Counted from the stretch's first letter, positions 18,400-38,556 are shown. The stretch: DNA of 64,000 nucleotides from an uncultured Chloroflexia bacterium (GCA_963698505.1 CAVORC010000052.1:4294-68293), one strand, 5' to 3'. Notes: generated by a model from the sequence alone, not told the origin. Numbers and translations: made by a program.

Positions 18400-18960
18400 C
18401 TAGGCCGGCGCCAGGATGCCTCGCGACTCGAGGTACTCGAGCACCAGCTGGGCGTTCGCCTGCGGCGTGGTGTCGGTCGTCTGCAGCGTCAGCTCGGGGT
18501 CCAGCGGTGGCTCGTAGGGATCGGACACGCCGGTGAACTCCTTGACCTCGCCGGTGCGCGCCCGGGCGTACCAGCCCTTGACGTCACGCGCCTCCACGAC
18601 CTCGAGCGGCGTGTCCACGAAGACCTCGACGAAGTCGTCGCCGACCATGGCGCGCACCTCGGCGCGGGTGTCACGGTAGGGACTCACCAGCGCCGCCACC
18701 ACCAGGCCGCCGTGGCGCACGACCTCGCTGGCCACGTAGCCCACGCGGCGGACGTTGGTGTCACGGTCCTCGCGCGAGAAGCCCAGCTCCCGGGTGAGAT
18801 GGGTGCGCACGACATCGCCGTCGAGCACCGTCACGGTCCGCCCGCGCGCCTCGAGGAGCGGCACCAGCGCCTCCGCCGTGGTGGACTTGCCCGAACCCGA
18901 GAGGCCGGTGAACCAGACGCAGGCGCCGCGCGGCGTGACCACGGGCTCCCGACTACTCAT
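18400..18960 (-). CDS. cysC: adenylylsulfate (APS) kinase
   Basis: 186-aa ORF with the P-loop FTGLSGSGKST and the motifs LDGDVVR and GFSREDRDTNVRRVGYVA characteristic of CysC. Confidence 0.9.
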   Translation of the reverse strand: MSSREPVVTPRGACVWFTGLSGSGKSTTAEALVPLLEARGRTVTVLDGDVVRTHLTRELGFSREDRDTNVRRVGYVASEVVRHGGLVVAALVSPYRDTRAEVRAMVGDDFVEVFVDTPLEVVEARDVKGWYARARTGEVKEFTGVSDPYEPPLDPELTLQTTDTTPQANAQLVLEYLESRGILAPA

Positions 18961-20748
18961 ACACCGAGTCGTCGATGCTGATGCGGCCCTCTTGCTCGGC
19001 TGCCGACCGGCGCTCGTCGTACCACTCGGCGAAGGCCGTCTGCCTGACGATGGCGGCAGCGTCGGCGTCGAGCGGCCGGGTGGCTTCGTCCTGCAGCTGA
19101 TAGATGCGGTATCCGTCGCCGGTATCGACCGGCTGACTGATCTCGCCGGGCTCGATGATGGTGATCGCCATGCAGCGTGAGGTCGTCCAGCTGGTCGGTG
19201 CGCTGCCAGCCGATCTCGCCGCCCTCGTCGGCCTCGGCCCCGTCGGAGTACTCGGCGGCCACGGTGGCGAAGTCGGCGCCGTCCTCTGCCAGCGCCGCCT
19301 GCACGGCGGCGACGCGCTCGGCCACTGGGGCTCGCGTCTCCTCGAACATGATCACGTGCCAGCCGAAGTCGGTGCGCACCGGGCCGATGATGTCGCCACG
19401 CTGCGGGTCCTCGGCATCGAAGATGGCCGCGGCGAACTCGGGCACCATCGCGTCGCGGGTGAAGTAGCCCAGGTCGCCACCACGGGCGCCGCTGGTGGTG
19501 TCGTCGCTGTCGAGCCGGGCCCGGGCAGCGAAGGCCTCCATGCGGGCGTCGACGTCCTCCACGCTGCGCGCCAGGGTCGCCACGGCCTCGGCCTCCTGGC
19601 GCGCCGCCTCCCAGGCCGGATCGTCCGCCGGCAGGTCGGCCAGGTCGGTGGGGTTGCCCTCCTCGTCGAGCGGGGTCTCCGGCTGGTACAGGATGTGGCT
19701 GGCGCGGACGTCACCCTCGTCCGACTCGGGGTCGGCGAAGGGATTGCCCTCGATGTAGATCTCGGCCAGCTTGACCTGCTCGTACTCGGCCGCGAGGGCC
19801 TCCTGCGTGACCTCGTCCTGGAGCTTGGCCGACGGTCGCCTCCAGCTCGACGTTGCGACGATGGACGGACTCGCCGACCTCGTCGTTGACGGCCTCGACG
19901 AAGCCCTCGTCCGCCTCTGCCGGCACGATGGCGGTCACCTTGCCGATGAGCTGCTCGCCGGAGGCAGCCTCGAAGACATCGGTCACCTCGCCTTCCTCCA
20001 GCTCGAAGATGGCGTCCTCCCAGGCCGCGTCGGTGATGTCACCGCGGCTGATGTAGCCGCTGTCGTAGTTGCCCGGTCCATAGGTCTCGGCGAGGGCCTC
20101 CGGGTCACCGCCGGCGCGCCACTCGGCGAGGGCGGCCTCGGCGCGCTCGCGGGCGTCGGCGATGCCGGCGTCGGTGGCGGCCATGCCGGCGGCCTGCTCG
20201 TCGGTGATGACGATGATGGCCTCGACGCGGCGGGCCTCTGGAAGGCCGCCATCGGCCGACACGGCCGCGTCCAGCTCGTCCGCGCTGAGCAGGACGCCGC
20301 GCTCGTCGGCCAGCTGTCCCTGGAAGATGAGATCGACGAGGTCGGCCATGACCTCGGCGGCATCCTGCGGGCTCTCGCTCGCGATGGTGGTCAGGCGGCG
20401 GTTGGCGAGGTCGGAGTCGATGGTGCCGGCGGCGAGAGCGGCACGCACCTGCGTCTCGGCGCGATCCGCGCGGAACGCCTCCAGCTTCTGGCGATCCTCC
20501 CACTCGCCGCGGCCGACCTGCGTGCCGTTGACGTTGGCGAGCGGCTTGAGGTTGCTCTCCCAGAAGCCGTAGGCAAGCCCGGCGATGGCGATGGTGACGA
20601 CGACCACGATGAGCCCGTAGAAGGCCCAGGTGATGTTGCGCGTGCGGCGTGCGTCGTCATCGATGAGACGCCCTCTCGAGTCCGTCGACAGGCGGGTCGA
20701 GATGCGGTCGCGGAGGGACGTGCTTCGGGGGCTGCGTCGGCGAGGTCA
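18953..20748 (-). pseudogene. membrane-anchored SurA/PrsA-like parvulin peptidyl-prolyl isomerase, at least 3 frame changes (about 20665, 19832 and 19170)
   Basis: The TM anchor is ITWAFYGLIVVVVTIAIAGLAYGF. The parvulin core is VRASHILY...GGDLGYFTRDAMVPEFAAAIFDAE..GDIIGPVRTDFGWHVIMFEE. The C-terminal piece AITIIEPGEISQPVDTGDGYRIYQL... is in another frame. The stop overlaps the cysC start by 8 nt. Confidence 0.7.
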
Positions 20749-20882
20749 TGCGGGGACGGTTCTCCGGCTGTTGCAGATGTCGCAGGGCGCGTCACGAGGC
20801 GACGCCGGTGGGGGGACCCGCCGCTGCTGCGCGCTGCCGAAGTCTAGCGCGTCATGACCCTGCCACGCGTGCACGAGCAGGC

Positions 20883-21930
20883 TCAGGCCTCGCCGGACTG
20901 CTCCAGGCGCCAGGCGTACTGCTGCTGGTAGTAGTCGTGCCAGGCTCCGCTCTTGATGGGCTCCCACCAGTCGCGGTGCGCGGCATACCAGTCGATGGTC
21001 TGCGCGATGCCCTCCTCGAAGGCCACGCGCGGCCGCCAGCCGAGCTGCCTGCAGGCGCGACCCATCGAGCGCGTAGCGCCGATCGTGGCCGGGCCGGTCG
21101 GGCACCGTCCGCACCAGCGACCAGGGCTTGCCCAGGTGCTGCAGGATCGCCTCGGTGACGGCGCGGTTGGGCCGCTCCACGCCGTCACCGGGGATGTTGT
21201 AGGTCTCGCCGGCCACGCCCCGATCGAGCACCACCCCCACGCCGTCGGCATGGTCGCTCACGAAGAGCCAGTCACGTCGCTGCATGCCATCGCCGTACAT
21301 CGGCAGCAGCTCATCGTCGAGGGCATTGGTGACGAACAGCGGGATGAGCTTCTCGGGGAACTGGTGGGGCCCGTAGGTGTTGGCTCCCCGCGTGATGACG
21401 GTGTCGAGGCCGTGCGTCTCGTGATACGCCGCGACGAGGTGCTCACCGGCCGCCTTGGCCGCGCTGTAGGGGCTGGTCGGCCGCAGCGGGTCGGACTCCA
21501 CCGAGCGGCCCTGCGGCACGGGCCCGTAGACCTCGTCGGTCGAGACCTGCAGCAGGCGGAAGGCACCACCCCGCTGATCGTGCTCGGCACGGGCGGCTTC
21601 CAGCAGGGCGTAGACGCCCATGACGCCGGTGCGCAGGAAGGCGCTGGGCTCCAGGATGGAGCGGTCGACGTGCGACTCGGCAGCGAAGTTGACGATGGCA
21701 TCGCAGTCGGCCGCCAGCTGGCGCATCAGGGGTTCGTCGGCGATGTCGCCCTCGACGAAGCGGTAGCGCTCACGCGTGGCCGGGTCCTCGGCCAGGCCGG
21801 CCAGGTTGGCGGGGTTGCCGGCGTAGGTGAGCTTGTCCACGACGGTGATCCGGTCGGCCGTGGTCGCCAGGCGTCGGCGCACGAACGTCGAGCCGATGAA
21901 GCCGGCGCCGCCGGTGACCAGGATCCTCAT
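20883..21930 (-). pseudogene. rmlB: dTDP-glucose 4,6-dehydratase RmlB, one frame change near 21045-21052
   Basis: Shows MRILVTGGAGFIGS, STDEVYG and PYSAAKAAGE (YxxxK). After ...RYALDGSRLQ the frame turns Ala/Arg-rich. The frame of ORF 20883..21251 gives QLGWRPRVAFEEGIAQTIDWYAAHRDWW. Confidence 0.85.
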
Positions 21931-22893
21931 GCCGAACCTCCGTCGCGGTACGCGGGAAACGTCGGGCTGCCGGTCGAGCCCGCCTGCGTGGAGAGCTCAT
22001 CGTAGGCGACGCGGTCGATGACGCGGCCGCAGCGCCAGGACGGCAGCGTCCGCTCCGTCCAGCCGCTCATGAAGCGAGCGGCGTCCTCGGCGCCGGCCGC
22101 GTCCGAGGCGTCGGCGACGCCCAGGTCGAGCCGATGCAGGCCGCGACCGGCCATGTCCTCCGCGACGGCCGCGTAGAGCGCGTAGGACGCGCCCAGCTCG
22201 TCGCCGCGCGCGCTGCCGGCGACCTGGTGGAGGTGCGCGTCCTCGCCGGCCAGGTAGACGACGGCCATGGCGACCGGTCCGTCTTCGGCAAGCGCGGTGA
22301 TGCCGACGCAGCCGGGCACGGCCAGCCGACGCTCCAGCGCCGTCCGCGAGAGCACACGGTCACCGGCGTCGGCAGGTCCGCCGGGACTGTCTGGGCCACC
22401 GGGGCGAGGACGCAGCGCGGCCCAGTCGTCGAGACGCCTCGCGGGTGCTTCCTCGATGTCGATCTCCAGCCGCTGCAGCGCCCGCCGGGCCGCACGGCGG
22501 TGGTCCCGTGCCGGCCAGAACGAGGGCAGGTCGACGACGAAGTGCTGGGCCTCCACGCGCACGACGTCGGGGAAGGCCTCGCGCAGCGTGGTCTCGCCGA
22601 CCTGCGCAAGGGGGTCGCTGCGGGCCGTCACGCTGACCACGTCGGCCAGGGCCGCGGTCTCGGCGAGGTCGTCGGCCAGCCCGCTGGGGTCGCGGCAGAC
22701 GAGCAGGGGCATGCCGACCTGGGCGTCGACGACGGGCGCTGCCGGGGATGGGCCGCGTGAGCAGCCAGGCACCGCTGCGGCGCAGATGGCGCACCTCGCC
22801 CAGCTCCACGTGCGCCTCGGCATACCCGGGATGGAGGTAGCCGTAGCGTCCCGCCGCCTCGAACAGGTCGTCGATCCCGAGGAGCTCGTCCAT
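21927..22893 (-). pseudogene. FemAB/CelD-like GNAT-fold acyltransferase (tentative), one frame change near 22735-22750
   Basis: The N-terminus MDELLGIDDLFEAAGRYGYLHPGYAE... lies in ORF 22360..22893. The rest (..VVYLAGEDAHLHQVAGSARGDELGASYALYAAVAEDMAGRGLHRLDLG..ARFMSGW) lies in ORF 21927..23099. The stop overlaps the rmlB ATG (ATGA). Confidence 0.45.
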
Positions 22894-24283
22894 CTAGCCG
22901 CCGTCGGGCCGACCGTGAAGAGCCCGGTCGTCGGCGCCGGCACCCTGCGTGTCCGTGTCGGCGACCAGCGCCGGCACCTCGGCGAGCGCCACGTCCCGGG
23001 CGAAGAGGCGCAGCAGCAGCACCAGCAGGCGCTCAGCGGGATCGTGACTGCGTCGCTCGAGCAGGGTCGCCTGGCGGACCCAGAGGATGGGCCGGCCACG
23101 CAGTCGGCGGGCCAGCAGGCCGCCGGTCAGCATGGCGATGCTGCCGACCCGACGAGCCGCTGGCGAGCCGCGCGCAGGGTCGAGCTGACCCTTCACGCCA
23201 AGGAACACCAGATGGCGCTGGCGCTGCTGTGCGCGAGCGGTGCAGGGCACGGGACGCACCACGACCAGATCGCGCCGGGCGAGCTCCAGCAGCAGGTCCT
23301 CGTTGCTGGGACCGACGGCGGCGCCGCCGGGCAGGATGGCCACCTCGCCCGCGGCGGTGGCGGCACCCTCGTAGCCGTGTCGGCGCAGGTATGCGGCCAG
23401 GTGCAGCCCGGCGAACCGTTGCGTATCTGCCGACATCTCCCGCTGCCAGCGACCGACGCTGCTGCTGTTGAGCGGCCCGGACACGCCCTCCTTCCACCAT
23501 TCGTGCGCGGCGGCCACGTTGGCGGCCGTGCCGCGAGCGTCGAGCATGCCCGGCTCGTAGTCCTCGCCGAGGAACTGGCAGATGCGACGCAGCTCGCGCT
23601 CGGGCTCGGTCACGAGGTCTTCGTAGCGCAGCGTCATGGCGCGCGGGTCAGCGCTCGAGGCGCTGGCGCGCGATGCGGTCATCGTGGTCGACACGGACGA
23701 GGTTCCCGACCACCGAATCCTTGGCGAAGGGCATGCGCGCCAGCGACAGGGCCACGTCGCGCGGATCGCGCACGATGCGGATGACCCGCGCAGCCGGCCA
23801 GTGGCGCCACAGCGCGTCGGTCATCAGCAGGTGCCGGGGCGTCTTCTCCATCCAGCGGGCCTTGCCTGCTGCGCGCGCGTGCGACACGGTCAACGACTCC
23901 AGCATCGCGGCCAGGGAGGGTGGGCGATCGGCGAGGTGATCGCGGACCTGGGCCAGCGTCAGGCCGAAGAGCTCGTTGACGGGGTGTCCCTGGTTGCGCA
24001 GCGAGCGCGACGAACTCGACGGCCGGGTCAGGCCACAGCGCAGGATCGAGGAGGCGTGCGCGAGCAGCGCTGTCGAGGTGTCGGTAGCGAGCGAAGAAGC
24101 GCGACTCGGGGCCGCAGTCCAGCCGCGAGTGGGCCGAGAGCATGGCCGCCAGCAGCGTCGTGCCCGAGCGGGCGATGCCGACGATGAAGACCGGGGCATC
24201 GGCCTGCGGGGCACGGGCGACCCCGGCGACGGGGTGGCGACAGGGGCGGCGGGGACCGCGGGGCCGGGGGGTGCTTCAGTCAT
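22894..24283 (-). pseudogene. sulfotransferase-family protein, paralog 1, with a conserved C-terminal extension; about 3 frame changes (about 24195, 24000 and 23648)
   Basis: The PAPS-binding 5'-PSB-like motif is PVFIVGIARSGTTLL and the 3'-PB-like motif is RIVRDPRDVALS. RYEDLV...ICQFLG follows. It is collinear with paralog 2 when read across three frames. Confidence 0.7.
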
Positions 24284-25661
24284 GGCGATGGTGCGTCGGA
24301 GCAGGCGGACATCGGCACCGACGAGCGCGGGCAGGTCCTGCGCCTCCATCGAGGTCGCCAGCAGCTGCAGCAGGCGCGCCACGAAGCGCTCGCCGCCATC
24401 GCGGGGATGGCGACGGATGAGGCTGAGGCGGCGGACCCAGACCACCGGGCGACCCTGCAGGCGTCGTGTCAGCAGCAGCAGCGCGAGCCGGCCGATGTCG
24501 ACGACGCGCCGACCGGCTCGGACGACCACGACCGGGGTCGAGCTGCCCGACGACGCCGAAGAACACCAGCGGATGCTGCAGGTGCAGCTCTTCGATGGTG
24601 GCCGGGATGGGGCGGCGGACCGCGACGTCGGCCGCGGCCAGTCGGAGCAGCACGTCGTCGTACTTCGCGTTGAGGGCGTCGCCGGCGGGCACGATGGCCA
24701 GCCTGCGCGCCGCCGGTGCCGGCTCCCCGTAGCCGTGCTCCTGCAGCATCGGACCCAGGTTCAGCGCGGCGTAGTGCTGCACCTCGGGGGGCATCTCCTG
24801 CTGCCAGCGACCGGAGCGCGATCGGTCCAGCGGCCCCGTGGCATCGCCCTTCCACCACTCGTGCGCCGCCGCCACTCCGCTCGCGCCACCCCGATCGGAG
24901 ACCATGCCCGGCTCGAACGCGACGCCCACGAAGTCGCAGATGCGCTGCAGCTCCTGCTCGGGCGCAGCCACCAGGTCCTCGTAGCGCACCGTCAGCGCCT
25001 GGTCCGACTCGCGGTAGAAGTCGGCCGCTGCCTCGTTCATGCGCGCCAGCACGGACAGGTTGGTCAGCAGCGACGGCGTGCCGAAGGGCACCTTGGTGAG
25101 CGACACGGCCGCGTCGCGAGGATCGCGCACGATGCGCACGATGCGGGCATGCGGCCAGGTCTCGACGATGAGCTCGGGAACCTCCAGGTGGCGCGGCGTC
25201 TTCTCCACCCAGCGGGGCACGCCGGCACGCTGGGCACGTTGCGCGGTGAGCGCCTCGAGCATCGAGGCCAGCGATGGGGGGCGCGCGGCCAGCCAGCTGC
25301 GCACGTCCTCTCGGGTGAGGCCGTACATGGGGTAGACCGGCTGCTTGCCCAGCGCCAGCGCGGTCACGTAGGCCGTCGCCCGCGCAGGCCAGTCGGCCGG
25401 GTCGAGGATGCGCGCACGCTCACGCTGGCCCAGGCGCGCCCAGCGCGAAAGGACGTGTGTCTCCGGCCCGCAGTCGAATGCCGAGTGCGCCGCCAGCATG
25501 GCCGACAGCAGCGTGGTGCCGGAGCGCGGGCCACCCACGACGAAGACGGGCTGAGAGGTCGGGTCGGTCACCGAGGCGACTCTATCAGGGCCGGACCGGC
25601 TGCGAGGCCACGCGCGGCGTGGGGAGATGCCGCCGCTTCTGCTACCGTCTAGGCCGTCCAT
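24276..25661 (-). pseudogene. sulfotransferase-family protein, paralog 2; frame change near 24535-24545, and the 3' end is uncertain
   Basis: Shows PVFVVGGPRSGTTLL, RIVRDPRDAAVS, RYEDLVAAPEQELQRICDFVG and HEWWKGDATGPLDRSRSGRWQQEM. The C-terminal domain continues in the frame of ORF 23648..24529 (VVDIGRLALLLLTRRLQGRPVVWVRR...). Confidence 0.7.
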
Positions 25662-26616
25662 GGGAGTCGTCAACGAGGCACCTGCTGCGTTCCGCAGCAG
25701 CAACGATCGGCCCGGTCCGGTCGCCCTCATCCGAAACGCTGTCACCGACGTCTGGTCACGCCGTCGGCTGATTCGCTATATGGTCCGCGCCGACGTCAAG
25801 AAGCGCGGCGTCAACACCGTGCTGGGCAACGTCTGGTGGGTGCTCGATCCGCTCATCACGATGCTCATCTACGTGCTCGTGATGACGGTCATCTTCCAGC
25901 GCTCGACACCTGACTTCCCACTCTTCCTGCTGAGCGCGATGGTGCCCTTCAAGTGGTTCACCGCCACCGTCGGCAGCTCGACCAAGGCGGTCATCGGCAA
26001 CGAGGGGCTCATCAAGCAGGTCAACTTCCCCAAGATCATCCTGCCGGTCACCATGACGCTGAGCCAGATCGTGAGCTTCCTGTTCGGCATGGGCGTGCTG
26101 CTGTTCGTCTGGCTCTTCGTCTACACCGACCACGTCACCTGGCAGGTGGTCTGGATCCCCCTGATCGCGGTGGTGCAGTACGTCTTCGTGCTGGGCCTCA
26201 CCTTCATGGTCTCGGCGGTCACCGTGTTCTACCGCGACGTCGGCATCATCATCGGCCACTTCATGCGCCTGCTCTTCTGGATCTCGCCCATCCTGTGGTC
26301 GTTCATGGAGGTCGCGGGTCGCGGCCGGCGCCTGCAGCAGGGCCTCGAGGGAGTGGAGAACGCGCTGGGCCTGCCGGCGGGTGTCCTCTTCGGCCTGATC
26401 TCGCTCAACCCCATGTCCATCCTGATGGAGTCGTACCGCAAGGTGGTCTACGGCCACCTCACCATCGACCCGCTGACCGACGAGCTCATCTGGACGCCTG
26501 CCACGCTGCCTGACTTCCAGGTCCTGTCGATCATCTTCGTCGCCGGCGTGGTCATCACCATCATCGGCACGGTCATCTTCCAGCGGCTCGCGCCCGCCTT
26601 CGCCAAGGTCCTGTGA
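25660..26616 (+). CDS. ABC-2 type polysaccharide/teichoic-acid export permease (Wzm/TagG-like)
   Basis: Shows RRLIRYMVRADVKKRGVNTVLGNVWWVLDPLITML followed by six TM segments. The stop overlaps the ATPase start by 4 nt. The start is uncertain (ATG 25660 within a CCATGG). Confidence 0.85.
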   Translation: MGVVNEAPAAFRSSNDRPGPVALIRNAVTDVWSRRRLIRYMVRADVKKRGVNTVLGNVWWVLDPLITMLIYVLVMTVIFQRSTPDFPLFLLSAMVPFKWFTATVGSSTKAVIGNEGLIKQVNFPKIILPVTMTLSQIVSFLFGMGVLLFVWLFVYTDHVTWQVVWIPLIAVVQYVFVLGLTFMVSAVTVFYRDVGIIIGHFMRLLFWISPILWSFMEVAGRGRRLQQGLEGVENALGLPAGVLFGLISLNPMSILMESYRKVVYGHLTIDPLTDELIWTPATLPDFQVLSIIFVAGVVITIIGTVIFQRLAPAFAKVL

Positions 26617-27860
26617 TGACCCAGCAGAAGAGCAGAGCGGGCCGCAAGGCTAACGCCAGGTCACTCGACCCCCGGTTCGACGGGCTGCTCGACGCGGAGA
26701 TCCTCGACGCGCTCGGAGAGGACGAGTCCGCTGCGCCCGACCCAAGGGAGTTCGGCCTGCACGTGCCGGCGCCCACCGGTGAGGTCGCCCTGCGTGCCAC
26801 GAACCTGGGCATCCGCTACAACCTCAACTTCAGCAAGAAGACGAAGCTGCATACGACGTTCGCCAACATGCTCGACCCGCGTCGTCGTCGCCGGGGCCAC
26901 TTCTGGGCCCTCCGAGGCGTGGACCTGGAGGTCAGGCGCGGCGAGGCCGTCGGCATCATCGGCCCCAACGGCTCGGGCAAGTCGACCATCCTGATGGCCC
27001 TGGCCGGCATCCTCCAGCCCTCCGAGGGCGTGGTCGAGATCGATGGTCATGTGTCGACGCTGCTGAGCCTCCAGGCGGGCTTCGATGCCGAGCTGACCGG
27101 CCGCGAGAACATCACCCTGGCTGGTGCGCTCATGGGCATCGACCACGAGACGATGCGGCAGATCACGCCCGATATCGTCCGCTTCGCCAACATCGGCGCC
27201 TTCATCAACGCGCCCATGAAGACCTACTCCTCGGGCATGCGTGCCCGCGTCGGGTTCGCCATCGCCACCGCGGTCGATCCCGACATCCTGCTGCTCGACG
27301 AGGTGCTGGGCACCGGTGACAACAAGTTCAAGAAGAAGTCGAAGAAGCGTATCGCCGAGGTGCTCCGCTCAGCCAAGGCCGTCGTCATGGTGACCCACGA
27401 CATGAGCTGGATCAAGACGTTCTGCACCCGGGCCGTGCTGATGGACCGGGGCCAGATCGTGGCCGATGGTGACCCGCTGGAGATCGTCGAGCTGCATGAG
27501 CACGGTGCCGAGAAGCGCAAGGTCGCGAAGCGCCACGCCAAGCAGCTGGTGAAGCACGGCGTCCTGGAGACGGACGCCGTCAAGCAGGCCATCCGCGAGG
27601 GCACCATCGAGGACCTGGTCGACGCGAACGAGGAGGCGCTCGCCTCCATCAAGGCCGAGAAAGCCAGGCGACGCGAGGCCAGGCAGGCCGCCAAGGCCGC
27701 GGCGGCAGCTGCTGTCGCCGAGCCGAGGCGCCGAGGCTGGGGCCACCGAGCCGGGGTCGCTGAGCCGGGGTCAGTGAGCCCGCGGCCGCCGTGCCGGAAC
27801 AGGCGCAGACCGTCCCACCCGCGCCTCGCTGACCGCCGACGCTGCTACCGGCCGCGGTAG
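26613..27860 (+). CDS. ABC-2 exporter ATP-binding protein (Wzt/TagH-like)
   Basis: Walker A is GPNGSGKST, the signature is YSSGMRARV and Walker B is ILLLDEVL. A charged helical C-terminal tail follows. The last about 45 codons are Arg/Pro-rich and may be out of frame. Confidence 0.85.
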   Translation: MMTQQKSRAGRKANARSLDPRFDGLLDAEILDALGEDESAAPDPREFGLHVPAPTGEVALRATNLGIRYNLNFSKKTKLHTTFANMLDPRRRRRGHFWALRGVDLEVRRGEAVGIIGPNGSGKSTILMALAGILQPSEGVVEIDGHVSTLLSLQAGFDAELTGRENITLAGALMGIDHETMRQITPDIVRFANIGAFINAPMKTYSSGMRARVGFAIATAVDPDILLLDEVLGTGDNKFKKKSKKRIAEVLRSAKAVVMVTHDMSWIKTFCTRAVLMDRGQIVADGDPLEIVELHEHGAEKRKVAKRHAKQLVKHGVLETDAVKQAIREGTIEDLVDANEEALASIKAEKARRREARQAAKAAAAAAVAEPRRRGWGHRAGVAEPGSVSPRPPCRNRRRPSHPRLADRRRCYRPR

Positions 27861-28900
27861 AGCTTCGCCGTCTCGGCCGCGATCGGTCCCCAGTCCATGC
27901 TGTCGGCCCAGGCGCGCCCGCGCTCGCCCATCGCCCGCAGGTCGGCACGTGAGGCGGTCCGCAGCGCATCGCGCAGCCCATCGCGCGCGTCGGGGTCGTA
28001 GAGGATGGTGGCGTCGCCCGGGAGCGTCCCGGGCAGGCAGCCCATCGCCGGCGCGATGACGGGCCTGCCGTGACTCAGGGCCAGGATGGCGCTGCCGGAG
28101 GTGAGGATGTCGCGGAACGGCAGCACCACCGCATCGGCCGCACGCAGGATGGCCGACAGGTCCTCTTCCGGGATGCGCTCCAGCCGCAGCACGATGCGCG
28201 GGTCCGACACCGCTCGCGACTCCAGCTCCCGCCCGAGCTTCCGCGGCAGCGGCTTGCCGCAGATGAGCAGTCGATCCTGTGGGCCCAGCGTGGCCACGCG
28301 GCCGAAGGCATCGAGCAGCTCGCCCACGTTCTTGTAGCCGCGGATCGAGCCGACGAAGGCGAAGACGCGACTCTCCGCGGGCAGCCCCAGGGACGCTCGC
28401 GCCGCGACCGGGTCGGCGTCCACGTCGTACTGGCGCACGTAGTTGCCGTGCGGCAGCACGTGCATCCGCTCACGCGCACCGGCGCTGGGCGCGTAGCGCG
28501 CGATGAGCGCCTCGCGGGCCATCTCGCAGTGCAGGATGATGGCGTCCGCCCGTTCGATGAGCACGCGGTGGGCCCGGGCGTCGCGGGGGTCCTCGCCGGC
28601 TTCGTGCCCCTTGATGTTGTGGACCGTCCAGATGATGCGGACGCCGCGCGCCCGCAGGAGGCGCAACTGCCACTCGAACCAGCGCAGGTTGCGAGCGCTG
28701 GGCGTGCCGCGGCTGCCGCCGAGGAACTCGTGGACCCAGTGGAGGTGCACGACGTCCGGCCGGCCCTGTGCCCACCACGCACCCAGGATGGCGCGCCGTT
28801 CGGGCCACTCGTGGACAGCCACGGCATCCACGCCGGCCTCTGTCAGGGCCGCCGCCAGCAGCCGCTGATAGGGGTTCCACTCGTACGAGGGCAGCAGCAT
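27845..28900 (-). CDS. GT4-family (GT-B) glycosyltransferase
   Basis: The C-terminal half has the GT-B retaining pattern ...FVGSIRGYKNVGELLDAF...LLICG...AADAVVLPF...TSGSAILALSHGRPVIA. ATG at 28900 lies downstream of the wecB stop. Confidence 0.75.
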   Translation of the reverse strand: MLLPSYEWNPYQRLLAAALTEAGVDAVAVHEWPERRAILGAWWAQGRPDVVHLHWVHEFLGGSRGTPSARNLRWFEWQLRLLRARGVRIIWTVHNIKGHEAGEDPRDARAHRVLIERADAIILHCEMAREALIARYAPSAGARERMHVLPHGNYVRQYDVDADPVAARASLGLPAESRVFAFVGSIRGYKNVGELLDAFGRVATLGPQDRLLICGKPLPRKLGRELESRAVSDPRIVLRLERIPEEDLSAILRAADAVVLPFRDILTSGSAILALSHGRPVIAPAMGCLPGTLPGDATILYDPDARDGLRDALRTASRADLRAMGERGRAWADSMDWGPIAAETAKLYRGR

Positions 28901-28931
28901 CGCGCGCAGCGGCTTGCCCGCGCGCTGCTGC

Positions 28932-30002
28932 TCACAGCTGTGCCAGCACCGCGGCGATGCGCTCGCCCGCATGGCCGTCCCAGCCGGGCGGTCCAGCGCC
29001 CGGCCGCGCCTGTGCTCCCGCCAGGGCGTCGTCGAGCGCGGGTGCCAGCGTGTCCGGCGAGACGAGCCGGTTGGTCCCGGCCGTCAGCGTGATGGGCCGC
29101 TCGGTATTGGGTCGCAGCGTCAGGCAGGGAACGTCCAGCACGGTCGTCTCCTCCTGGATGCCGCCCGAGTCGGTGATCACCACCGCCGCGCCACGCACCA
29201 GCGAGATGAAGTCGATGTAGCCCAGCGGCTCTACCACCGTCAGGCCCGCCACCTCGTCGAGACCGGCAGCCGCCAGGGTGGCCCGCCCGCGCGGGTGCAG
29301 CGGCAGGACCAGCGGCAGTCGCGCCGTCGCCTCCTGCAGGGCGCCGACCAGCGCGGCGGCCGCCGCGGCCGAATCGACGTTGGCCGGCCGATGCAGCGTG
29401 GCCACGCCGTAGGGTGCCGCCAGCCCCAGTCGCGCCATCACCGGCCCCGGCTGGAACCGATCGAGGTGCGCCAGCAGCGTGTCGATCATGGGGTTGCCCA
29501 CGAAGACGACGCGATCGCCGCTGATGCCCTCGGCGGCGAGGTTCTGCTCACCCTCCGGCGCGGTCACGAAGAGCGGGTCGCTGAGCAGGTCGGTGACGCG
29601 ACGGTTGACCTCCTCCGGCATGGTGTCGTCGAACGAGCGCAGGCCCGCTTCCACGTGTGCCACCGGGATGAGCAGCTTGGCGCACACGAGCGCCGCCGCC
29701 AGCGTGGAGTTGACGTCGCCATAGACCACCACGCGCTCGGGCTGCTGCGCCAGGAACGCCTCCTCGAGCGCCAGCAGCAGCGCCGCCGTCTGCGCCGCGT
29801 GCGATCCGGAGCCGACGCCGAGGTTGATGTCCGGCTGGGGCAGGCCCAGCTCCTCGAAGAAGACATCGGACATGGCCCGGTCGTAGTGCTGGCCGGTGTG
29901 GACGAGCTGCTGCTCCACGCCCCGCGCGGCAAGGGCGGCGACGACGGGGGCGGCCTTGATGAAGTTGGGTCGCGCACCGACGATGTGGATGAGTCCGGGC
30001 AT
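28932..30002 (-). CDS. wecB: UDP-N-acetylglucosamine 2-epimerase (non-hydrolysing)
   Basis: 356-aa ORF showing HIVGARPNFIKAAPV, HTGQHYD, GSGSHAAQTA, VYGDVNSTLA, HVEAGLRSFD and TDSGGIQEE. Confidence 0.9.
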   Translation of the reverse strand: MPGLIHIVGARPNFIKAAPVVAALAARGVEQQLVHTGQHYDRAMSDVFFEELGLPQPDINLGVGSGSHAAQTAALLLALEEAFLAQQPERVVVYGDVNSTLAAALVCAKLLIPVAHVEAGLRSFDDTMPEEVNRRVTDLLSDPLFVTAPEGEQNLAAEGISGDRVVFVGNPMIDTLLAHLDRFQPGPVMARLGLAAPYGVATLHRPANVDSAAAAAALVGALQEATARLPLVLPLHPRGRATLAAAGLDEVAGLTVVEPLGYIDFISLVRGAAVVITDSGGIQEETTVLDVPCLTLRPNTERPITLTAGTNRLVSPDTLAPALDDALAGAQARPGAGPPGWDGHAGERIAAVLAQL

Positions 30003-30041: not shown

Positions 30042-31364
30042 ATGCTAGAGTCACTAGCCGTGACCGCATCACGCTCGTTCAGCGACACCGTCGGCATCAT
30101 CGGGCTGGGATACGTCGGCCTGCCTCTGGCCGTCGCGTTCGCCGATTCCGGGATGCGGGTGATCGGCTATGACGTATCCGAGACGAAGGTCTCGTCGATC
30201 GGCGCCGGTGCCTCGTACATCGAGGACATCTCCTCGGCGGAGCTTGCGCCGCTGGTCCGCTCAGGGGCGCTGGAGGCAACGACGGACCCCTCCAGGCTGG
30301 CTGACTGCGCCGCGCTGCTGATCTGCGTCCCCACGCCTCTCGGCGGGCACCGCGAACCGGACCTGTCATACGTCGTCAGCGCTGCCGAGACAGCTATCGC
30401 CAGCATGGCAGCCGGTTCCCTGCTCGTGCTCGAGTCGACGACCTGGCCGGGCACCACCCGCGAGGTGATCGCGCCCATGCTGGAGGCTGCCGGCCGCACC
30501 ATCGGCGATGACGCGTTCCTCGCGTTCAGCCCGGAGCGGGTGGATCCCGGGAACACGGTCTGGGGCATCCGCAAGACCCCCAAGATCGTCGGCGGCTACA
30601 CGGCCGCCTGCACCGAGCGGGCGAGGAGCCTCTACGAGCGGATCTGCGAGAGCGTGCACACGGTCTCGACGCCGGAGTCGGCGGAGATGGCCAAGATCAT
30701 CGAGAACACCTTCCGCGCGGTGAACATCGCGCTGGTCAATGAGCTGGCCATCCTGGCCGACCGCATGGACATCGATATCTGGGAGGCGATCGAGGCTGCC
30801 TCGACCAAGCCCTTCGGCTTCATGCCGTTCTGGCCGGGACCGGGCCTCGGCGGCCATTGCATCCCCATCGATCCGTTCTACCTGGCATGGCGGGCCCGAG
30901 CCTTCGACCTCGAGAGCGGGTTCGTGGAGCTGGCCGGACGCGTGAACGTGAACATGCCGCACTATGCGATGTCGCGCATCACGCGATCGCTCAACGGCCG
31001 TGGCAAGGCGGTGCGAGACGCGCGAGTGCTGCTGCTGGGCGTGGCCTACAAGGCCGACGTCGGCGACCTGCGTGAGAGCCCGGCCCTGAAGCTGCTGCAG
31101 CTCCTGCGCGACGCGGGCGCAGACGTGACGTACCACGACCCGCACGTGCCGACGCTTGCTGACCAGGGGCTCTCCTCGGTCGAGCTCGACGCGGGGACCC
31201 TGGAGGGGGCCGACTGTGTCGTGATCGCCACCGACCATCGCGCACTGGACCTGGCCCTGGTGGTCGAGCATGCCGACCTGGTGATGGATCTGCGCAACGC
31301 CGTGCGGCAGCGACTGACGGGCAGTCCCTCGGGTAGCGTGCCGTCCAACGTCGACGTCCTCTAG
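30042..31364 (+). CDS. wecC: UDP-N-acetyl-D-mannosamine / nucleotide-sugar dehydrogenase
   Basis: ATG at 30042 is in frame with the last 440 codons of ORF 28914..31364. Shows VGIIGLGYVGLPLAVAF, the catalytic GLGGHCIPIDP, and LGVAYKADVGDLRESPA. Confidence 0.85.
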   Translation: MLESLAVTASRSFSDTVGIIGLGYVGLPLAVAFADSGMRVIGYDVSETKVSSIGAGASYIEDISSAELAPLVRSGALEATTDPSRLADCAALLICVPTPLGGHREPDLSYVVSAAETAIASMAAGSLLVLESTTWPGTTREVIAPMLEAAGRTIGDDAFLAFSPERVDPGNTVWGIRKTPKIVGGYTAACTERARSLYERICESVHTVSTPESAEMAKIIENTFRAVNIALVNELAILADRMDIDIWEAIEAASTKPFGFMPFWPGPGLGGHCIPIDPFYLAWRARAFDLESGFVELAGRVNVNMPHYAMSRITRSLNGRGKAVRDARVLLLGVAYKADVGDLRESPALKLLQLLRDAGADVTYHDPHVPTLADQGLSSVELDAGTLEGADCVVIATDHRALDLALVVEHADLVMDLRNAVRQRLTGSPSGSVPSNVDVL

Positions 31365-31397
31365 GCGGATCGGTGCCCGTAGGCGGATCGGTGCCCG
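31362..31397. repeat. perfect 18-bp tandem duplication (TAGGCGGATCGGTGCCCG x2)
   Basis: Read directly: 31362-31379 equals 31380-31397. Copy 1 starts with the wecC TAG stop, and each copy carries a candidate GTG start for the DUF354 gene. Confidence 0.95.
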
Positions 31398-32407
31398 CGC
31401 GTCGACGGAAGGTCTGGATCGACCTCACCAACTCCCCCCACGTCCTCTTCTTCCGGCCCATCCTGCGCCGGCTCGACGACGCCGGCGTGGAGTCGGTGGT
31501 GACGGCTCGCGATTTCGCCCAGACGCTGGGACTGCTGCAGCGCTACGGCATCGCCCACACCGTCATCGGCCGTCACGGCGGCGCGTCCGTGGCAGGCAAG
31601 GGGCTGGGCCTCGCCCGGCGCTCCACGGCGCTGATCCGGTTCGGCCGCGGGCGCGGCATCACCCAGGCCGTCAGCCACGGATCGAACGACCTCGCCATCG
31701 CCGCCCGCGTGCTGCGTCTTCACAGCACCGTGCTGCACGACTACGAGGGCGCGGCGGGCATGCACCGCATCAACTTCCGGCTGGCCAGCAAGGTCATGCT
31801 GCCCGATGCCATCCCCTACGCCGCCGTCGCCGGCTTCGGGCTGTCCGAGTCACGCTACCGGCCCTACCACGGGCTCAAGGAACAGGTGGCGCTCGCCGAT
31901 TTCGCGCCTGACGAGCAGGTCTACGAGGAGCTTGGCCTCGATCGTGAGCGGCCCATCGTGGTGCTCCGGCCACCCGCCACGATGAGCCTGTACCACCGCG
32001 GCATCGAGAACACCGTCTTCGACGACGTCCTGGCGCGGCTGCTCGAGAGCGATGCGCAGGTGGTGCTGCTGCCGCGGACCCCCGAGCAGGCCGCCTCCTT
32101 CGCCGGCACGCCCCGCGTCATCATCCCCGAGCGCCCGGTCGACGGACCGTCGCTGGTGTGGGTCGCGGACGCCGTCGTCAGCGCCGGCGGCACCATGAAC
32201 CGCGAGGCGGCCGTGCTGGGCGTTCCCACCTGGACCACCTTCGCCGGGACCCTGGGCGCGGTCGACCGGGAGCTGCTGCGGCAGGGCCGGATGCAGCTGC
32301 TGGAGCGTGCGGACGACCTGGTCATCGCCAGGCGCCAGCGCAGCGTGCCGACATTCGAGGCCACCGCCGACGCGGTCACCGAGGAGATCCTGCGCACCGG
32401 GAGGTAG
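31373..32407 (+). CDS. DUF354-family protein (predicted GT-B-like glycosyltransferase)
   Basis: KVWIDLTNSPHVLFFRPILRRLDDAGVESVVTARDFAQTLGLLQRYGI matches my recollection of DUF354 N-termini. The start GTG is duplicated (31373 or 31391) by an 18-bp tandem repeat. Confidence 0.55.
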   Translation: MPVGGSVPARRRKVWIDLTNSPHVLFFRPILRRLDDAGVESVVTARDFAQTLGLLQRYGIAHTVIGRHGGASVAGKGLGLARRSTALIRFGRGRGITQAVSHGSNDLAIAARVLRLHSTVLHDYEGAAGMHRINFRLASKVMLPDAIPYAAVAGFGLSESRYRPYHGLKEQVALADFAPDEQVYEELGLDRERPIVVLRPPATMSLYHRGIENTVFDDVLARLLESDAQVVLLPRTPEQAASFAGTPRVIIPERPVDGPSLVWVADAVVSAGGTMNREAAVLGVPTWTTFAGTLGAVDRELLRQGRMQLLERADDLVIARRQRSVPTFEATADAVTEEILRTGR

Positions 32408-32437
32408 CGCGCGACGAGCCGTGCCGATCCGGTCGGG

Positions 32438-33308
32438 TCAGCGCTTCCTGATCGACTGCTTGACCTGTGGCGTGATGCGCACCGCCAGCCGGGCGCTCTC
32501 GCCGGTGCGACAGAGCCCCCGGCCGTTGACCTCGCATTCCACGACGATGCCCACCACGCACTGGCTGCGGCCGCAGGGCGACCCGTCGCCGAAGGAGCGC
32601 CAGACCGGTCCGCCGCTCATGCCCTGGGCGACGAAGGCGTTGACGTTCAGCAGGCGCGGCTCAGCCGCGACGACCGGCCACACCTCGCCGTTCATGCGCC
32701 AGAGGTTGAAGGCGTTCATGCCGTCGAAGCGTGGGTCTGCGGGGTAGCCAGCCACCTTGACCTTGCGGCCAGCCTCGAGCTGGCCGTCTCCGGCGCTGGT
32801 GGCCCACAGCCGCATGATGGCGTTGCGTGGGTACGAGCAGCCCTTCTTGGTGGTGAGCACCGCGTAGTCGTGGACCCGGCTGCCGAACTGGCGATCGGTG
32901 GCGCTGCGCTTGATGAACTTGGAGTGCGCCCACACCTTGGCCACTTCGCAGGCAGCGTAGGTCGAGCCGCCCGCCGCACTGCTGTAGGCGCGGTACACGC
33001 GGACGTTGCCGGGCAGGCCCTTGCGGAACTGGTAGCGTCCGGCAGAAGCATCGCGCACCAGGCAGTGCGCCGCGGTCACCACCTTGCGCGGAGCCACGAT
33101 GAAGCCGGTGCAGGCGACACGATCGGCGATGGTCACCAGCGCCAGGCCCCGGTGCGGTCGCTCGGCGAGGCGGGCGGGGCTGACGATGCCCCCGTCGATA
33201 CCGGCAGCGGCGCGTGCCCGGCAGTGCCGCTCCGAGCACCAGCAGCAGCGACGTCAGCAGCAGCGGCAGGCGCAGCGGCCAGCGCGCGTCATGTCCCGCC
33301 TCCGTCAC
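32438..33308 (-). pseudogene. secreted trypsin-like (S1 family) serine protease, at least one frame change near 33210
   Basis: The His motif is VVTAAHC and the Ser motif is GMSGGPV, in ORF 32438..33136. The signal peptide RWPLRLPLLLTSLLLVLGAALPG is in another frame. Candidate starts are GTG 33308 or ATG 33292; the latter forms an ATGA overlap with the GT4 stop. Confidence 0.65.
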
Positions 33309-34689
33309 GAGGTGAGCCGCCGTCGCGGATGGAGTGTCCGCTCGTCTCAGGCCCACCGTCGCGCGCCAGCTTGCGGTACAGCTCCACGAGGCCGGTGGCA
33401 GTCTGGTCCCAGGTGTAGCGGGCGAGCGCGACCTCACGGCAGTGGGCGCGCAGCGCCCGGCGCTCGTCGGCCGGCGCGCTGAGCAGATCGGCACAGGCGG
33501 CGGCGATGGCGGCCGGATCATCGATGTCGACGCAGACACCGACGCCCTCCTCCGCGGTGAGGCGACACTGCTCGTTGCCCTCGCTCACGACCACCGGCAC
33601 GCCGGCCATCATGGACTCGAACAGCTTGTTGGGCAGGTTCATCTTCTGGTTCAGGGTACGCGGCGGCTGACCCACGAAGGAGACGTCGGCACTGGCCGTC
33701 CAGGGCATGAGGTCATCCGGGCGCACGGCCGGCAGCAGGTAGATGCGGCCCGGGTGCTCCGCCACGGCAGCGGCGATCAGCGCCTCCAGTCGCCCGTAGC
33801 CCATGAACACGACGGCTGCGCCGAGCTCCATCAGTCGCGGCTGGGTCGCCGCGGCCACCAGCTCCTCCACGCCCCGGTCGACGGAGAAGCCACCCTGGTA
33901 GAGCACGATGGGGCGCTCCGGCTCGATGCCGGTCGCCTGGCGGATACGGTCGGACTCCACGACGCCCGGCTGCTCCGGTCGCCACGCCGGCGGGCAGTTC
34001 CACAGCACGGTCGGACGCGGCACGCCCCAGCGGCGCACCACCAGCTCCGCCACCGGGTCGCTCACCGCCAGGAAGGCCGACCCGTCACGGGCCCAGTCGC
34101 GCTCCCGCCGGCGCACCACCTCGCGCACGACCCAGGGCATGCGCGCGAGGCGGGCAGCCTCGGTGTGATAGTCGGCCACGTCGTACACGAAACGACCTCC
34201 CAGTCGGCGGGCGGCGTCGCGGACGACCGGCAGCACCACCAGGGACTGGGCGTGGAAGACGTCGGTCTCCGGCGCGGCCGCGACGACGGCATCGGCCCAG
34301 GGTCGCGCTCGACGGGCGTTGGCGACCATCTCCAGCGTCCGGCGCAGCGGGTGCAGCAGACGGTCGAGACCGGTCGGCGCATCCGGCGGCAGCACCTGCG
34401 CCTCGGGATCGAGCCGGATCACGCGACAGAGGGCACGTCTCACCCGGTCGGGCAGCGGCCGCAGGGCGTTGCTGATGCGGCGGTCGATGTCGAGACGCGT
34501 GAGCGCGACACCGGGTGCCAGCTCTTCCGCGGTCGGCAGGCCGGGTGCTGACCAGCCCAGGATGCGCAGCCGGTGACCATCGGCCGCCAGCGAGGTCGCC
34601 GAACGCAGGAAGCGCGAATCGAACTCGAAGGGATTGGCGGCCACGATGGTGATGTTCAGCCGGCCCGCCTGGGGCGCTGCGACGCTCAA
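33289..34689 (-). CDS. GT4-family (GT-B) glycosyltransferase
   Basis: 466-aa ORF. The C-terminal half reads IVLYQGGFSVDRGVEELV..VFMGYG...SADVSFVGQ...NLPNKLFESMMAGVPVVVSE (E-x7-E-like region). Confidence 0.8.
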   Translation of the reverse strand: MSVAAPQAGRLNITIVAANPFEFDSRFLRSATSLAADGHRLRILGWSAPGLPTAEELAPGVALTRLDIDRRISNALRPLPDRVRRALCRVIRLDPEAQVLPPDAPTGLDRLLHPLRRTLEMVANARRARPWADAVVAAAPETDVFHAQSLVVLPVVRDAARRLGGRFVYDVADYHTEAARLARMPWVVREVVRRRERDWARDGSAFLAVSDPVAELVVRRWGVPRPTVLWNCPPAWRPEQPGVVESDRIRQATGIEPERPIVLYQGGFSVDRGVEELVAAATQPRLMELGAAVVFMGYGRLEALIAAAVAEHPGRIYLLPAVRPDDLMPWTASADVSFVGQPPRTLNQKMNLPNKLFESMMAGVPVVVSEGNEQCRLTAEEGVGVCVDIDDPAAIAAACADLLSAPADERRALRAHCREVALARYTWDQTATGLVELYRKLARDGGPETSGHSIRDGGSPRDGGGT

Positions 34690-34779
34690 CGCTGGGGGTA
34701 CTCCTGGATCGGCCCCGTGCCTGGCGCGGGGCTACGCGGACCAGCCTAACGCGGACCGCGCAGATGAGCAGGTGGTCGT

Positions 34780-35562
34780 TCAGCCCTCGTCGCCATCGCG
34801 AGCCATGCGGGCGGTCGGACCGCGACCGCGCAGCTCCTCCCAGCGCAGCTGCAGCACGACCAGCAGGGCCTCGACGATGATGGACTTGGACATCTTGCTG
34901 GTGCCGACCTCTCGGTCCTTGAACACGATGGGCACCTCCGCCACGCGGGCTCCGGCGCGCGTGGCCAGGTACGTCGTCTCGATCTGGAAGACGTAGCCGC
35001 CCGAGTGCACGCGGTCCCAGTCCACCGCCTGCAGCGCCGACCGGCGCCAGGCCTTGAAGCCGCCGGTGAGGTCGTTGGGTGACAGGCGCAGGACGATCCT
35101 GGCGAAGAGCGAGCCGCCGCGCGAGACGACGCGCCGCAGGATGCCCCAGTCACGAACGCCGCCGCCGCGCGTGTAGCGCGAGCCGATGACGACGTCGGCG
35201 CGGTCGGCGAGCGGCGCCAGCAGCGCTGGCAGGTAGTCGGGCGAGTGCGACCAGTCGGCGTCCATCTGCACGACCTGGCTGGCGCCTCCGTCGAGCGCCA
35301 CCCCGAAGCCCTCGATGTAGGCCTTGCCCAGGCCCTCCTTGCCGGCCCGGTGCCGGACGCGGATGCGAGGCTCGTCCGCAGCCAGCTGGTCGGCGAGCTC
35401 GCCGGTCCCGTCGGGCGAGGCGTCGTCGACCACGAGCAGCGTCGCGCCGGGCAGGGCATCGAGGATGGCGCGGGAGATCCCGGCCAGGTTCTCAGCCTCG
35501 TCGTACGTGGGCAGGACCACCCAGGTGCCGGCGTAGCGGTCGGTGTCGGTGTGCTCGGTCAT
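34780..35562 (-). CDS. polyprenol-phosphate mannosyl/glycosyl transferase (GT2, Ppm1/DPM1-like)
   Basis: Shows WVVLPTYDEAENL, LVVDDASPDGT, KEGLGKAYIEGF, QMDADWSH, GSRY, GFKAWRR and FQIE, the typical GT2 Dpm1-like order. Confidence 0.85.
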   Translation of the reverse strand: MTEHTDTDRYAGTWVVLPTYDEAENLAGISRAILDALPGATLLVVDDASPDGTGELADQLAADEPRIRVRHRAGKEGLGKAYIEGFGVALDGGASQVVQMDADWSHSPDYLPALLAPLADRADVVIGSRYTRGGGVRDWGILRRVVSRGGSLFARIVLRLSPNDLTGGFKAWRRSALQAVDWDRVHSGGYVFQIETTYLATRAGARVAEVPIVFKDREVGTSKMSKSIIVEALLVVLQLRWEELRGRGPTARMARDGDEG

Positions 35563-38550: not shown

Positions 38551-38556
38551 GGGCGC

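Follow-up and report, generated by a model that had tools for sequence, protein, structure and literature searches.

Gene content of the locus

We analysed a 64,000-nt stretch of DNA from an uncultured Chloroflexia bacterium (GCA_963698505.1 CAVORC010000052.1:4294-68293; hereinafter the window). Positions 18400-35562 hold the genes of a putative sulfated surface glycan: two paralogous sulfotransferases (ST1 and ST2), an ATP-binding cassette (ABC) exporter of the Wzm/Wzt type, a stand-alone adenosine 5'-phosphosulfate (APS) kinase, and genes for sugar precursors and glycosyltransferases (GTs) (Table 1). Because the G+C content of the window is ~70%, the raw lists of open reading frames (ORFs) are crowded with spurious frames. 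Genes were thus called from third-position GC content (GC3) and a six-frame composition trace, and the calls were then tested against Pfam and NCBIfam. All eleven gene types that a first-pass annotation had assigned to 18400-35562 were found and pass these profile tests.

The junctions claimed as ATGA overlaps were read directly from the sequence. The junctions FemAB-like gene/rmlB and GT4/protease are indeed ATGA, and the junction wzm/wzt reads GTGATGA. A further ATGA overlap joins the peptidyl-prolyl isomerase (PPIase) gene to cysC, and ST1 and ST2 overlap by ATGACTGA. Gene content and overlaps of the first-pass annotation therefore stand, whereas its strand description was loose and the frameshifts described below had escaped it. 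Specifically, the genes do not lie nearly all on one strand; they form five transcription units of alternating orientation, within which genes overlap or abut. Scans for sigma-70 promoters and intrinsic terminators gave counts at or below shuffle expectation, so the operon structure is drawn from overlaps and spacing only.

Both STs match profiles of 3'-phosphoadenosine 5'-phosphosulfate (PAPS)-type sulfotransferases, PF13469 (Sulfotransfer_3) and PF00685, and the proposed assignment to this class holds. ST1 scores 122.8 bits against PF13469 (cutoff 27), and ST2 matches it in fragments only, of 36.8 and 31.3 bits, in two different ORFs. Among the matches listed, 120/120 ST1 homologues carry PF13469. 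Because both genes are frameshifted in the window, protein-level statements on ST1 and ST2 rely on intact relatives. The 5'-phosphosulfate-binding (5'-PSB) loop PRSGTT, the 3'-phosphate-binding (3'-PB) motif RDPRD..S, and an EKTPRH segment are kept in both paralogues. Across 12 sequences, both paralogues included, R16, S17, G18, T19, T20, R149, D150, and S157 are invariant. E37 is also invariant and aligns with the second Glu of the CGEET segment of the tyrosylprotein sulfotransferase TPST2, a residue that we take to be the catalytic base.

The structure of the STs was modelled with AlphaFold (AF2) on P0001, an intact homologue 95% identical to ST1, with a predicted local distance difference test score (pLDDT) of 89 and a predicted template modelling (TM) score (pTM) of 0.87. 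The top Foldseek matches of the model in the PDB are TPST1/2 (E 1e-11, 21-24% identity), followed by the sulfotransferase domains of OLS and CurM and then by mycobacterial Stf9 and Stf1. In a sequence search of the PDB, TPST is the best match as well (E 2e-14). The sole NCBIfam match of the STs is NoeE, weak and far below its cutoff, which is annotated there as a nodulation protein and which we take to be a fucose sulfotransferase acting on Nod factors. The model contains an extra C-terminal alpha/beta domain of ~140 aa (residues ~289-420), which is compact; modelled alone, it has no Foldseek match in the PDB better than E 0.05 or a TM score of 0.5. Distant ST homologues have a median length of ~405 aa, indicating that most of them carry a comparable C-terminal extension. 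TPST1/2 and the CurM/OLS domains share the 5'-PSB and 3'-PB motifs with the window STs, which differ from them in their low identity, in the extra C-terminal domain, and in having no peptide or polyketide synthase partners.

Homology fixes the predicted chemistry of the STs, PAPS-dependent sulfation, and not their acceptor; a glycan as the acceptor class is inferred from the genomic context. Alternatively, the acceptor may be something other than a glycan, for instance tyrosines in a secreted or surface protein or peptide, a lipid, or a small molecule, and the glycan genes would then be mere neighbours. The best PDB matches, TPST1/2 and next the acyl-ACP sulfotransferases CurM/OLS, are in line with this alternative, as are a secreted protease and an extracytoplasmic PPIase encoded in the cluster. 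However, the identity to TPST is low and PF13469 is a broad family, the only NCBIfam match is a carbohydrate sulfotransferase, and no precursor-peptide or lipid-synthesis genes adjoin. Moreover, ST and Wzm/Wzt stay linked in different phyla, and the ST often seems to be translationally coupled to wzt. We consider a non-glycan acceptor improbable.

The APS kinase CysC scores 207.5 bits against TIGR00455 (cutoff 138.7). The start of cysC overlaps the stop of the PPIase gene, and mazG, rph, and ham1 are close downstream. The PPIase is a single protein of 597-598 aa in relatives, with an N-terminal transmembrane segment (residues 36-65) and weak NCBIfam matches to SurA/PrsA. No signal peptide or transmembrane segment is found in the STs, the GTs, or CysC. 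For the FemAB-like protein, no NCBIfam match and no meaningful PDB sequence match were obtained. The orthologue of the protease in the related contig L001 has a signal-peptide-like N-terminus.

The sole NCBIfam match of Wzm is the galactan export permease Wzm/RfbD; a +1 insertion at 25653 leaves the N-terminus of the window Wzm uncertain. In NCBIfam, Wzt scores best against TagH (E 1e-62) and galactan Wzt (E 7e-52), without reaching the equivalog cutoff of either. The carbohydrate-binding module (CBM) Wzt_C (PF14524) is absent by Pfam from the Wzt of the window and from that of L001. The overlap of the ABC-2 permease gene with that of a Wzt/TagH-type nucleotide-binding domain fits an ABC-transporter-dependent glycan pathway. 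As had been claimed, a scan of the main ORFs of the 64 kb shows neither Wzx nor Wzy, and a Wzx/Wzy pathway was rejected on that account. A lipopolysaccharide (LPS) O-antigen was rejected by inference, since the best matches of the exporter are TagH and galactan Wzt. To our knowledge, Chloroflexota are generally regarded as lacking LPS, which also counts against an O-antigen. No TagO, TagA, TagB, or TagF gene was found in the window.

The rhamnose precursor genes had been placed in the cluster, which itself contains only rmlB; rmlA, rmlD, and rmlC lie 13 kb to the left and complete the dTDP-L-rhamnose set. All four RmlABCD genes are in the window, with rmlB and rmlD frameshifted. The intact L001 orthologue of RmlB scores 408 bits against TIGR01181 (cutoff 365). 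WecB scores 282 bits against TIGR00236 (cutoff 210); its exact sequence gave no match in the index used. The wecC-like gene, which is hidden inside a longer ORF in the raw list, scores 413.7 bits against TIGR03026, a model of the general NDP-sugar dehydrogenase subfamily (cutoff 189.8). Against equivalogs of UDP-N-acetylmannosamine (UDP-ManNAc) dehydrogenase it gives E 2e-85 and 1e-76, with 287 bits for NF040825 (cutoff 750) and 258 for PRK11064 (cutoff 459). The reading of the two genes as sources of UDP-ManNAc and of its uronic acid, UDP-ManNAcA, is thus confirmed above an equivalog cutoff for wecB, while wecC passes the general dehydrogenase model only. The wecC-like product is probably a UDP-ManNAc dehydrogenase, a specificity assigned because the gene adjoins wecB.

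The DUF354 protein has no NCBIfam match and no meaningful PDB sequence match; one paper on DUF354 predicts a glycosyltransferase fold in which the catalytic residues are poorly conserved. A 17-bp tandem duplication, GATCGGTGCCCGTAGGC, is present at 31368-31384 between the wecC stop and the DUF354 start and is absent from the 95%-identical contig L003. The rightmost gene had been called a polyprenol-phosphate GT2; its GT2 family is confirmed, and its likeness to the synthases is weak (NCBIfam at ~E 1e-13, far below cutoffs).

Table 1. Genes of the locus and the separate rhamnose precursor genes, with positions in the window
Gene	Position	Strand	Product and profile matches
cysC	18400..18960	-	stand-alone APS kinase, intact; PF01583 (E 4e-60)
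PPIase	18957..20749	-	PPIC-type peptidyl-prolyl isomerase, PrsA/SurA-like, membrane-anchored; Rotamase matches on fragments
rmlB	20883..21930	-	dTDP-glucose 4,6-dehydratase; PF16363/PF01370
FemAB-like gene	21927..22893	-	Acetyltransf_6 (FemAB/CelD-like GNAT); PF13480 (E 1e-7)
ST2	22894..24283	-	paralogue of ST1, ~47% identical; ATG 24283, stop 22894; PF13469 fragments
ST1	24276..25571	-	PAPS-type sulfotransferase, TPST/CurM-like; GTG start 25571; PF13469
wzm	25627..26616	+	ABC-2 permease, six hydrophobic segments; divergent from ST1; PF01061
wzt	26613..27860	+	ABC ATPase of TagH/Wzt type, tail charged and helical; PF00005
GT4 (inner)	27845..28972	-	GT-B, 351 aa, downstream of wecB; PF13692/PF00534/PF13439
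wecB/mnaA	28932..30002	-	non-hydrolysing UDP-GlcNAc 2-epimerase; PF02350 (E 7e-97)
wecC-like	30042..31364	+	NDP-sugar dehydrogenase, divergent from wecB
DUF354	31373..32407	+	predicted transferase, GT-B clan; PF04007 (E 2e-47)
protease	32438..33292	-	secreted trypsin-like serine protease, start overlaps GT4 stop; PF13365/PF00089
GT4 (outer)	33289..34689	-	GT-B, 466 aa, weak WcaI family match; PF13692/PF00534/PF13439
GT2	34780..35562	-	polyprenyl-phosphate sugar synthase-like (AglJ/PpgS/DPM-like); PF00535 (E 6e-26)
rmlA, rmlD (three frame pieces), rmlC	4869..7067	+	PF00483, PF04321 (in three pieces), PF00908; rmlA models also match

Frameshifts in the window

Frameshifts were located by tblastn and by comparison with three related contigs that carry the orthologues in intact form: L001 (ST1 88% identical), L002 (a short-read MEGAHIT contig, ST1 95% identical), and L003 (95% DNA identity over 19.8 kb). 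Neither ST1 nor ST2 has an intact reading frame in the window assembly; both genes are intact in all three contigs, where ST2 encodes 438-457 aa. Specifically, ST1 has an insertion at ~24517 and its frame is restored ~210 nt further on, at ~24305, so that ~70 codons are garbled and the last third of ST1 translates as typical out-of-frame sequence. ST2 has three or more insertions (~24232, ~24007, and ~23653) and runs through three frames, with a net change of +1 from ATG to stop. In rmlB, a +1 insertion at ~21047 puts the last ~59 codons in another frame. The FemAB-like gene has a +1 insertion at 22730, the protease gene one at 33213, and the PPIase gene two (~19172 and ~19833), which split it over three frames. 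mazG, rph, and ham1 also carry insertions, and guaA, rmlD, an RCC1-repeat gene, and a Peptidase_S58 gene (six or more frame pieces) are split likewise. Overall, +1 insertions affect 5517-7079, 16400-25700, 33213, 43280-45104, 46560-47840, and 52735-54240, and ~14 single-base insertions fall in coding sequence at 16.4-25.7 kb.

All the changes are +1 insertions outside homopolymers, with no deletions, and none of them is present in L001, L002, or L003. The GC3 coding signal is undiminished in the frame-shifted segments. One explanation is that the frameshifts are real and the locus is decaying in this organism, with ST2, the FemAB-like gene, rmlB, and others being pseudogenes and no sulfated glycan being made. 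The number of insertions between 16.4 and 25.7 kb and at 33213, their absence from three relatives, and their position outside homopolymers speak for it. Decay does not, however, explain why only +1 insertions occur and why coding composition is intact, and the same lesions in rph, mazG, ham1, guaA, rmlD, and the Peptidase_S58 gene would be implausible for a living cell. We consider decay very improbable, and a true pseudogene locus was rejected because essential and housekeeping genes bear the same kind of +1 insertion. For these reasons, namely the exclusive +1 changes, the non-homopolymer positions, the undiminished coding composition, and the essential genes hit, we conclude with high confidence that the frameshifts of the window are assembly errors and not pseudogenes. 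Their spread across genes points to an unpolished assembly, and gene-level readings of it need frameshift-aware analysis.

The closest relative, L003, a long-read metagenome-assembled genome (MAG), has an isolated frameshift of its own in wecB (6163-6182). Such a lesion is typical of long-read MAGs and supports a technical origin of these indels.

Conservation and sulfotransferase-exporter linkage

The cluster proteins were searched by tblastn against 79 loci, of which a close set comprises 20 relatives at species level whose 10-kb flanks are complete. All 20 have ST1, a second ST-like match, wzm, wzt, the 351-aa GT4, wecB, rmlB, the PPIase gene, and cysC, in agreement with the expectation that the genes are co-conserved. 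A separate ST2 copy is present in 19/20; in the remaining relative (L010), the ST2 query only re-matches the ST1 locus. DUF354 is also found in 19/20, and the counts for the outer GT4, the protease, and the GT2 are bounded by flank length. Since dozens of genomes share the arrangement, chance falls far short of explaining the clustering. More distant Limnocylindrales loci (~44% ST identity) have one ST and the order GT4-DUF354-wecC-wecB-wzt-wzm-ST-PPIase-cysC. The deep core therefore consists of the ManNAc(A) genes, the exporter, the ST, and cysC, and ST2, rmlB, and the FemAB-like gene are later additions. Two close relatives (L011 and L012) have a ~1.2 kb extra segment between ST1 and ST2 (11260-12550), which may be a third gene or a third ST.

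The conservation of cysC bears on whether this gene belongs to the pathway at all. It could instead serve general sulfur metabolism as part of a housekeeping operon (PPIase-cysC-mazG-rph-ham1), its proximity to the STs being incidental. The overlap of cysC with the PPIase gene, the closeness of mazG, rph, and ham1 behind it, and the lack of ATP sulfurylase nearby agree with such a role. Nevertheless, cysC is within 10 kb of ST in 20/20 close relatives, the ST-PPIase-cysC order holds down to ~44% ST identity within Limnocylindrales, and some Bellilinea-type genomes (L038, L039, L047, and L061) have cysC no more than 8 kb from ST. In addition, we know of no need for a stand-alone APS kinase except where PAPS is consumed. 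A purely incidental neighbourhood is thus quite improbable.

The ST subfamily, proteins of ~400 aa that join a TPST-like catalytic domain to the C-terminal alpha/beta domain, comprises at least 245 clusters at 50% identity (E<=1e-30). Homologues of ST1 are common in metagenomes, with 652 matches among the candidates scored, the top 120 of which are at least 61% identical. Those that are named are sulfotransferases of Chloroflexota or Candidatus Limnocylindrales MAGs, and the genomes that carry them are mostly soil MAGs labelled uncultured Chloroflexia or Limnocylindrales. The host of the window is a Limnocylindrales-type soil Chloroflexota bacterium.

Outside this clade, a distant set of 46 loci was compared (Anaerolineae, Caldilineales, Ardenticatenaceae, Planctomycetota, Acidobacteriota, and others). 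In 26 of the 46, no more than 10 kb separates the ST from a Wzt homologue, and in 21 of those 26 wzm, wzt, and ST are on one strand, with the ST start at the wzt stop. Examples among loci L033-L069 are L043 (7850-11227) and Bellilinea caldifistulae (L061, 8778-11194). This position behind wzt is presumably that of wbdD in E. coli O9a. Of the Wzt proteins tested near distant ST homologues, 25/29 have the Wzt_C module. In characterised systems, Wzt_C recognises and binds a cap at the non-reducing end, with methyl, (methyl)phosphate, and Kdo given as caps (PMC9445017). The capped O-antigen systems, E. coli O9a WbdD/Wzt-CBM and Aquifex aeolicus WzmWzt (PMC9445017), resemble the ST loci in combining Wzm/Wzt with the gene of a modifying enzyme beside wzt. 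The distant ST homologues share that place and have Wzt_C in their Wzt, whereas the Wzt of the window has no CBM and its STs are divergent from wzm/wzt. In Aeromonas salmonicida, an ORF with a sulfotransferase domain beside wzt has been noted and left unexplained (PMC4483657).

The distant loci raise the question of whether the STs are chain terminators, which add a terminal sulfate cap and do not decorate every repeat. The one-strand wzm-wzt-ST order and the frequency of Wzt_C would suit a terminator. In the window, however, several features are unfavourable to it: Wzt_C is absent there and from close relatives, wzm/wzt and the STs are divergent, there are two paralogous STs, and the C-terminal domain is modelled as a compact alpha/beta fold and not as a coiled-coil ruler. 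Sulfate is also not among the caps listed for capped O-antigens (PMC9445017). Chain termination by the window STs is therefore unlikely in our view. In the other phyla, the wzm-wzt(Wzt_C)-ST module may be a sulfate cap system that has not yet been described.

Both patterns could be joined in one evolutionary scenario, which we put forward tentatively as a possibility that we do not favour. Ancestrally, the ST subfamily would have terminated the chains in ABC systems for capped glycans (Anaerolineae, Planctomycetota, Acidobacteriota, and others), the sulfate cap being read by Wzt_C. In Limnocylindrales, the CBM would have been lost, the ST duplicated, and cysC recruited, giving a heavily sulfated, phosphate-free anionic wall polymer in the role of teichoic acid.

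In two Anaerolinea MAGs (L049 and L052, ~7860-14300), two wzm/wzt pairs flank the ST and are followed by a FemAB-like gene, 33-36% identical to the family of the window, so the FemAB-like association is not confined to Limnocylindrales.

Proposed pathway and relation to known systems

Judged from its genes, the locus probably serves to make a sulfated cell-surface glycan by an ABC-transporter-dependent pathway in Limnocylindrales-type Chloroflexota, with considerable room for doubt. This reading starts from what is observed, namely the gene set, its conservation, the motifs and fold of the STs, and the type of exporter, and the proposal of a sulfated envelope glycan is supported at the bioinformatic level by the ST profiles and motifs and by co-conservation. 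In the proposed pathway, WecB would supply UDP-ManNAc, the WecC-like enzyme a uronic-acid derivative, and RmlABCD dTDP-6-deoxy-sugars, including dTDP-rhamnose (dTDP-Rha). The two GT4s and the DUF354 protein, three GT-B-type transferases, would assemble the glycan on the cytoplasmic side of the membrane, with polyprenyl phosphate as the carrier. ST1 and ST2 would then O-sulfate it with CysC-derived PAPS; the sulfation is placed in the cytoplasm because that is where PAPS occurs and because the STs have no signal peptides. The FemAB-like acyltransferase may further decorate the glycan by acylation or aminoacylation, and Wzm/Wzt would export the finished product. Because the Wzt of the window has no cap-binding module, export probably does without cap gating. 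The expected product is an anionic polymer of the wall or surface, comparable in function to teichuronic or teichoic acid.

Several points weigh against the sulfated-glycan pathway. The organism is uncultured, and the reading is drawn from genes and genomic context. Since protein-tyrosine sulfotransferases are the nearest relatives of the STs with a solved structure, homology leaves the class of acceptor unfixed, and ST2 as sequenced cannot give a full-length protein. Among the main ORFs scanned across the 64 kb, there is no priming transferase of the WecA/TagO or WbaP type (no PF00953 or Bac_transf match), no LCP ligase, and no ATP sulfurylase; the gene of the polyprenyl-phosphate priming transferase may lie in another part of the genome. 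Of the close relatives, 13/20 have wecC and 12/20 have the FemAB-like gene, so each of the two is dispensable in a third or more of them. Finally, cysC stands in a run with the housekeeping genes mazG, rph, and ham1, and its link to the STs could be partly incidental.

A polysaccharide cluster with PAPS-dependent sulfation is of an already known kind, and an ABC-exported, sulfated Rha-containing polymer, which the first-pass annotation had called unusual, has a precedent. The capsular polysaccharide of Cobetia marina KMM 1449 contains Rha2S, and one cluster holds rml genes, GTs, a Kps ABC exporter, cysNC/cysD/cysQ, and an ST (PMC11766843). The window locus likewise combines dTDP-Rha synthesis, GTs, an ABC exporter, a PAPS gene, and STs; in C. 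marina, the sulfation of Rha is chemically documented. The two differ in several respects. C. marina is a diderm gammaproteobacterium with the group 2/3 capsule exporter KpsMTED, Kdo priming by KpsSC, and cysNC/cysD/cysQ, whereas the window locus belongs to a Chloroflexota host and has a TagGH/Wzm-Wzt-type exporter without outer-membrane parts, ManNAc(A) precursors, and a stand-alone cysC as its sole PAPS gene. The architecture of the STs is a further difference from known cases.

In cyanobacteria, clusters of both the Wzx/Wzy and the ABC type hold sulfotransferase genes (PMC8205485). The synechan (xss) cluster of Synechocystis PCC 6803 is similar to the window locus in having two sulfotransferases within a polysaccharide cluster, but synechan itself is a free extracellular polysaccharide made by a Wzx/Wzy-dependent route, and the ABC-type examples are predicted only and confined to cyanobacteria (PMC8205485).

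TagGH and the mycobacterial galactan Wzm/Wzt (Rv3781/Rv3783) are the best NCBIfam matches of the Wzt and Wzm of the window, all of them below equivalog cutoffs. ManNAc and ManNAcA precursors are typical of teichoic-acid linkage units and of teichuronic acids. Compared with teichoic systems, the negative charge of the window product would come from sulfate and uronate and not from phosphate. The host is presumed to be monoderm. Literature searches for a link between Limnocylindria/Chloroflexota and either sulfotransferases or sulfated polymers, or between Wzt and sulfated products, gave no relevant paper.

Few bacteria have sulfated glycans that are documented chemically. If the proposed pathway is correct, an abundant uncultured soil lineage, the Limnocylindrales-type Chloroflexota, carries a conserved route to a sulfated surface polymer, which would matter for the envelope architecture of Chloroflexota, for the sulfur and carbon of soil organic matter, and for the discovery of enzymes to make sulfated polysaccharides. 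The coupling of ST to wzm-wzt with a cap-binding Wzt is a testable lead for new chain-termination chemistry, and Bellilinea caldifistulae GOMI-1 (L061) is a cultured carrier of that module.

Elsewhere in the window, 7081-12628 holds a sugar-uptake unit with no apparent relation to the cluster; it comprises a GH32-like hydrolase, two ABC permeases, a solute-binding protein, and a LacI-type regulator. Two genes of GGDEF diguanylate cyclases, one with a GAF domain, lie at 12779-14197 and 57557-58708; they might regulate surface polymers, and nothing ties them to the locus. Directly to the right of the cluster, at 35632-39687, a conserved ~450-aa protein without a Pfam match is followed by, or fused to, a FlgD_ig-like segment. 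After this protein come mreC (37659-38597) and mreB (38557-39687), and the locus therefore adjoins cell-shape genes.

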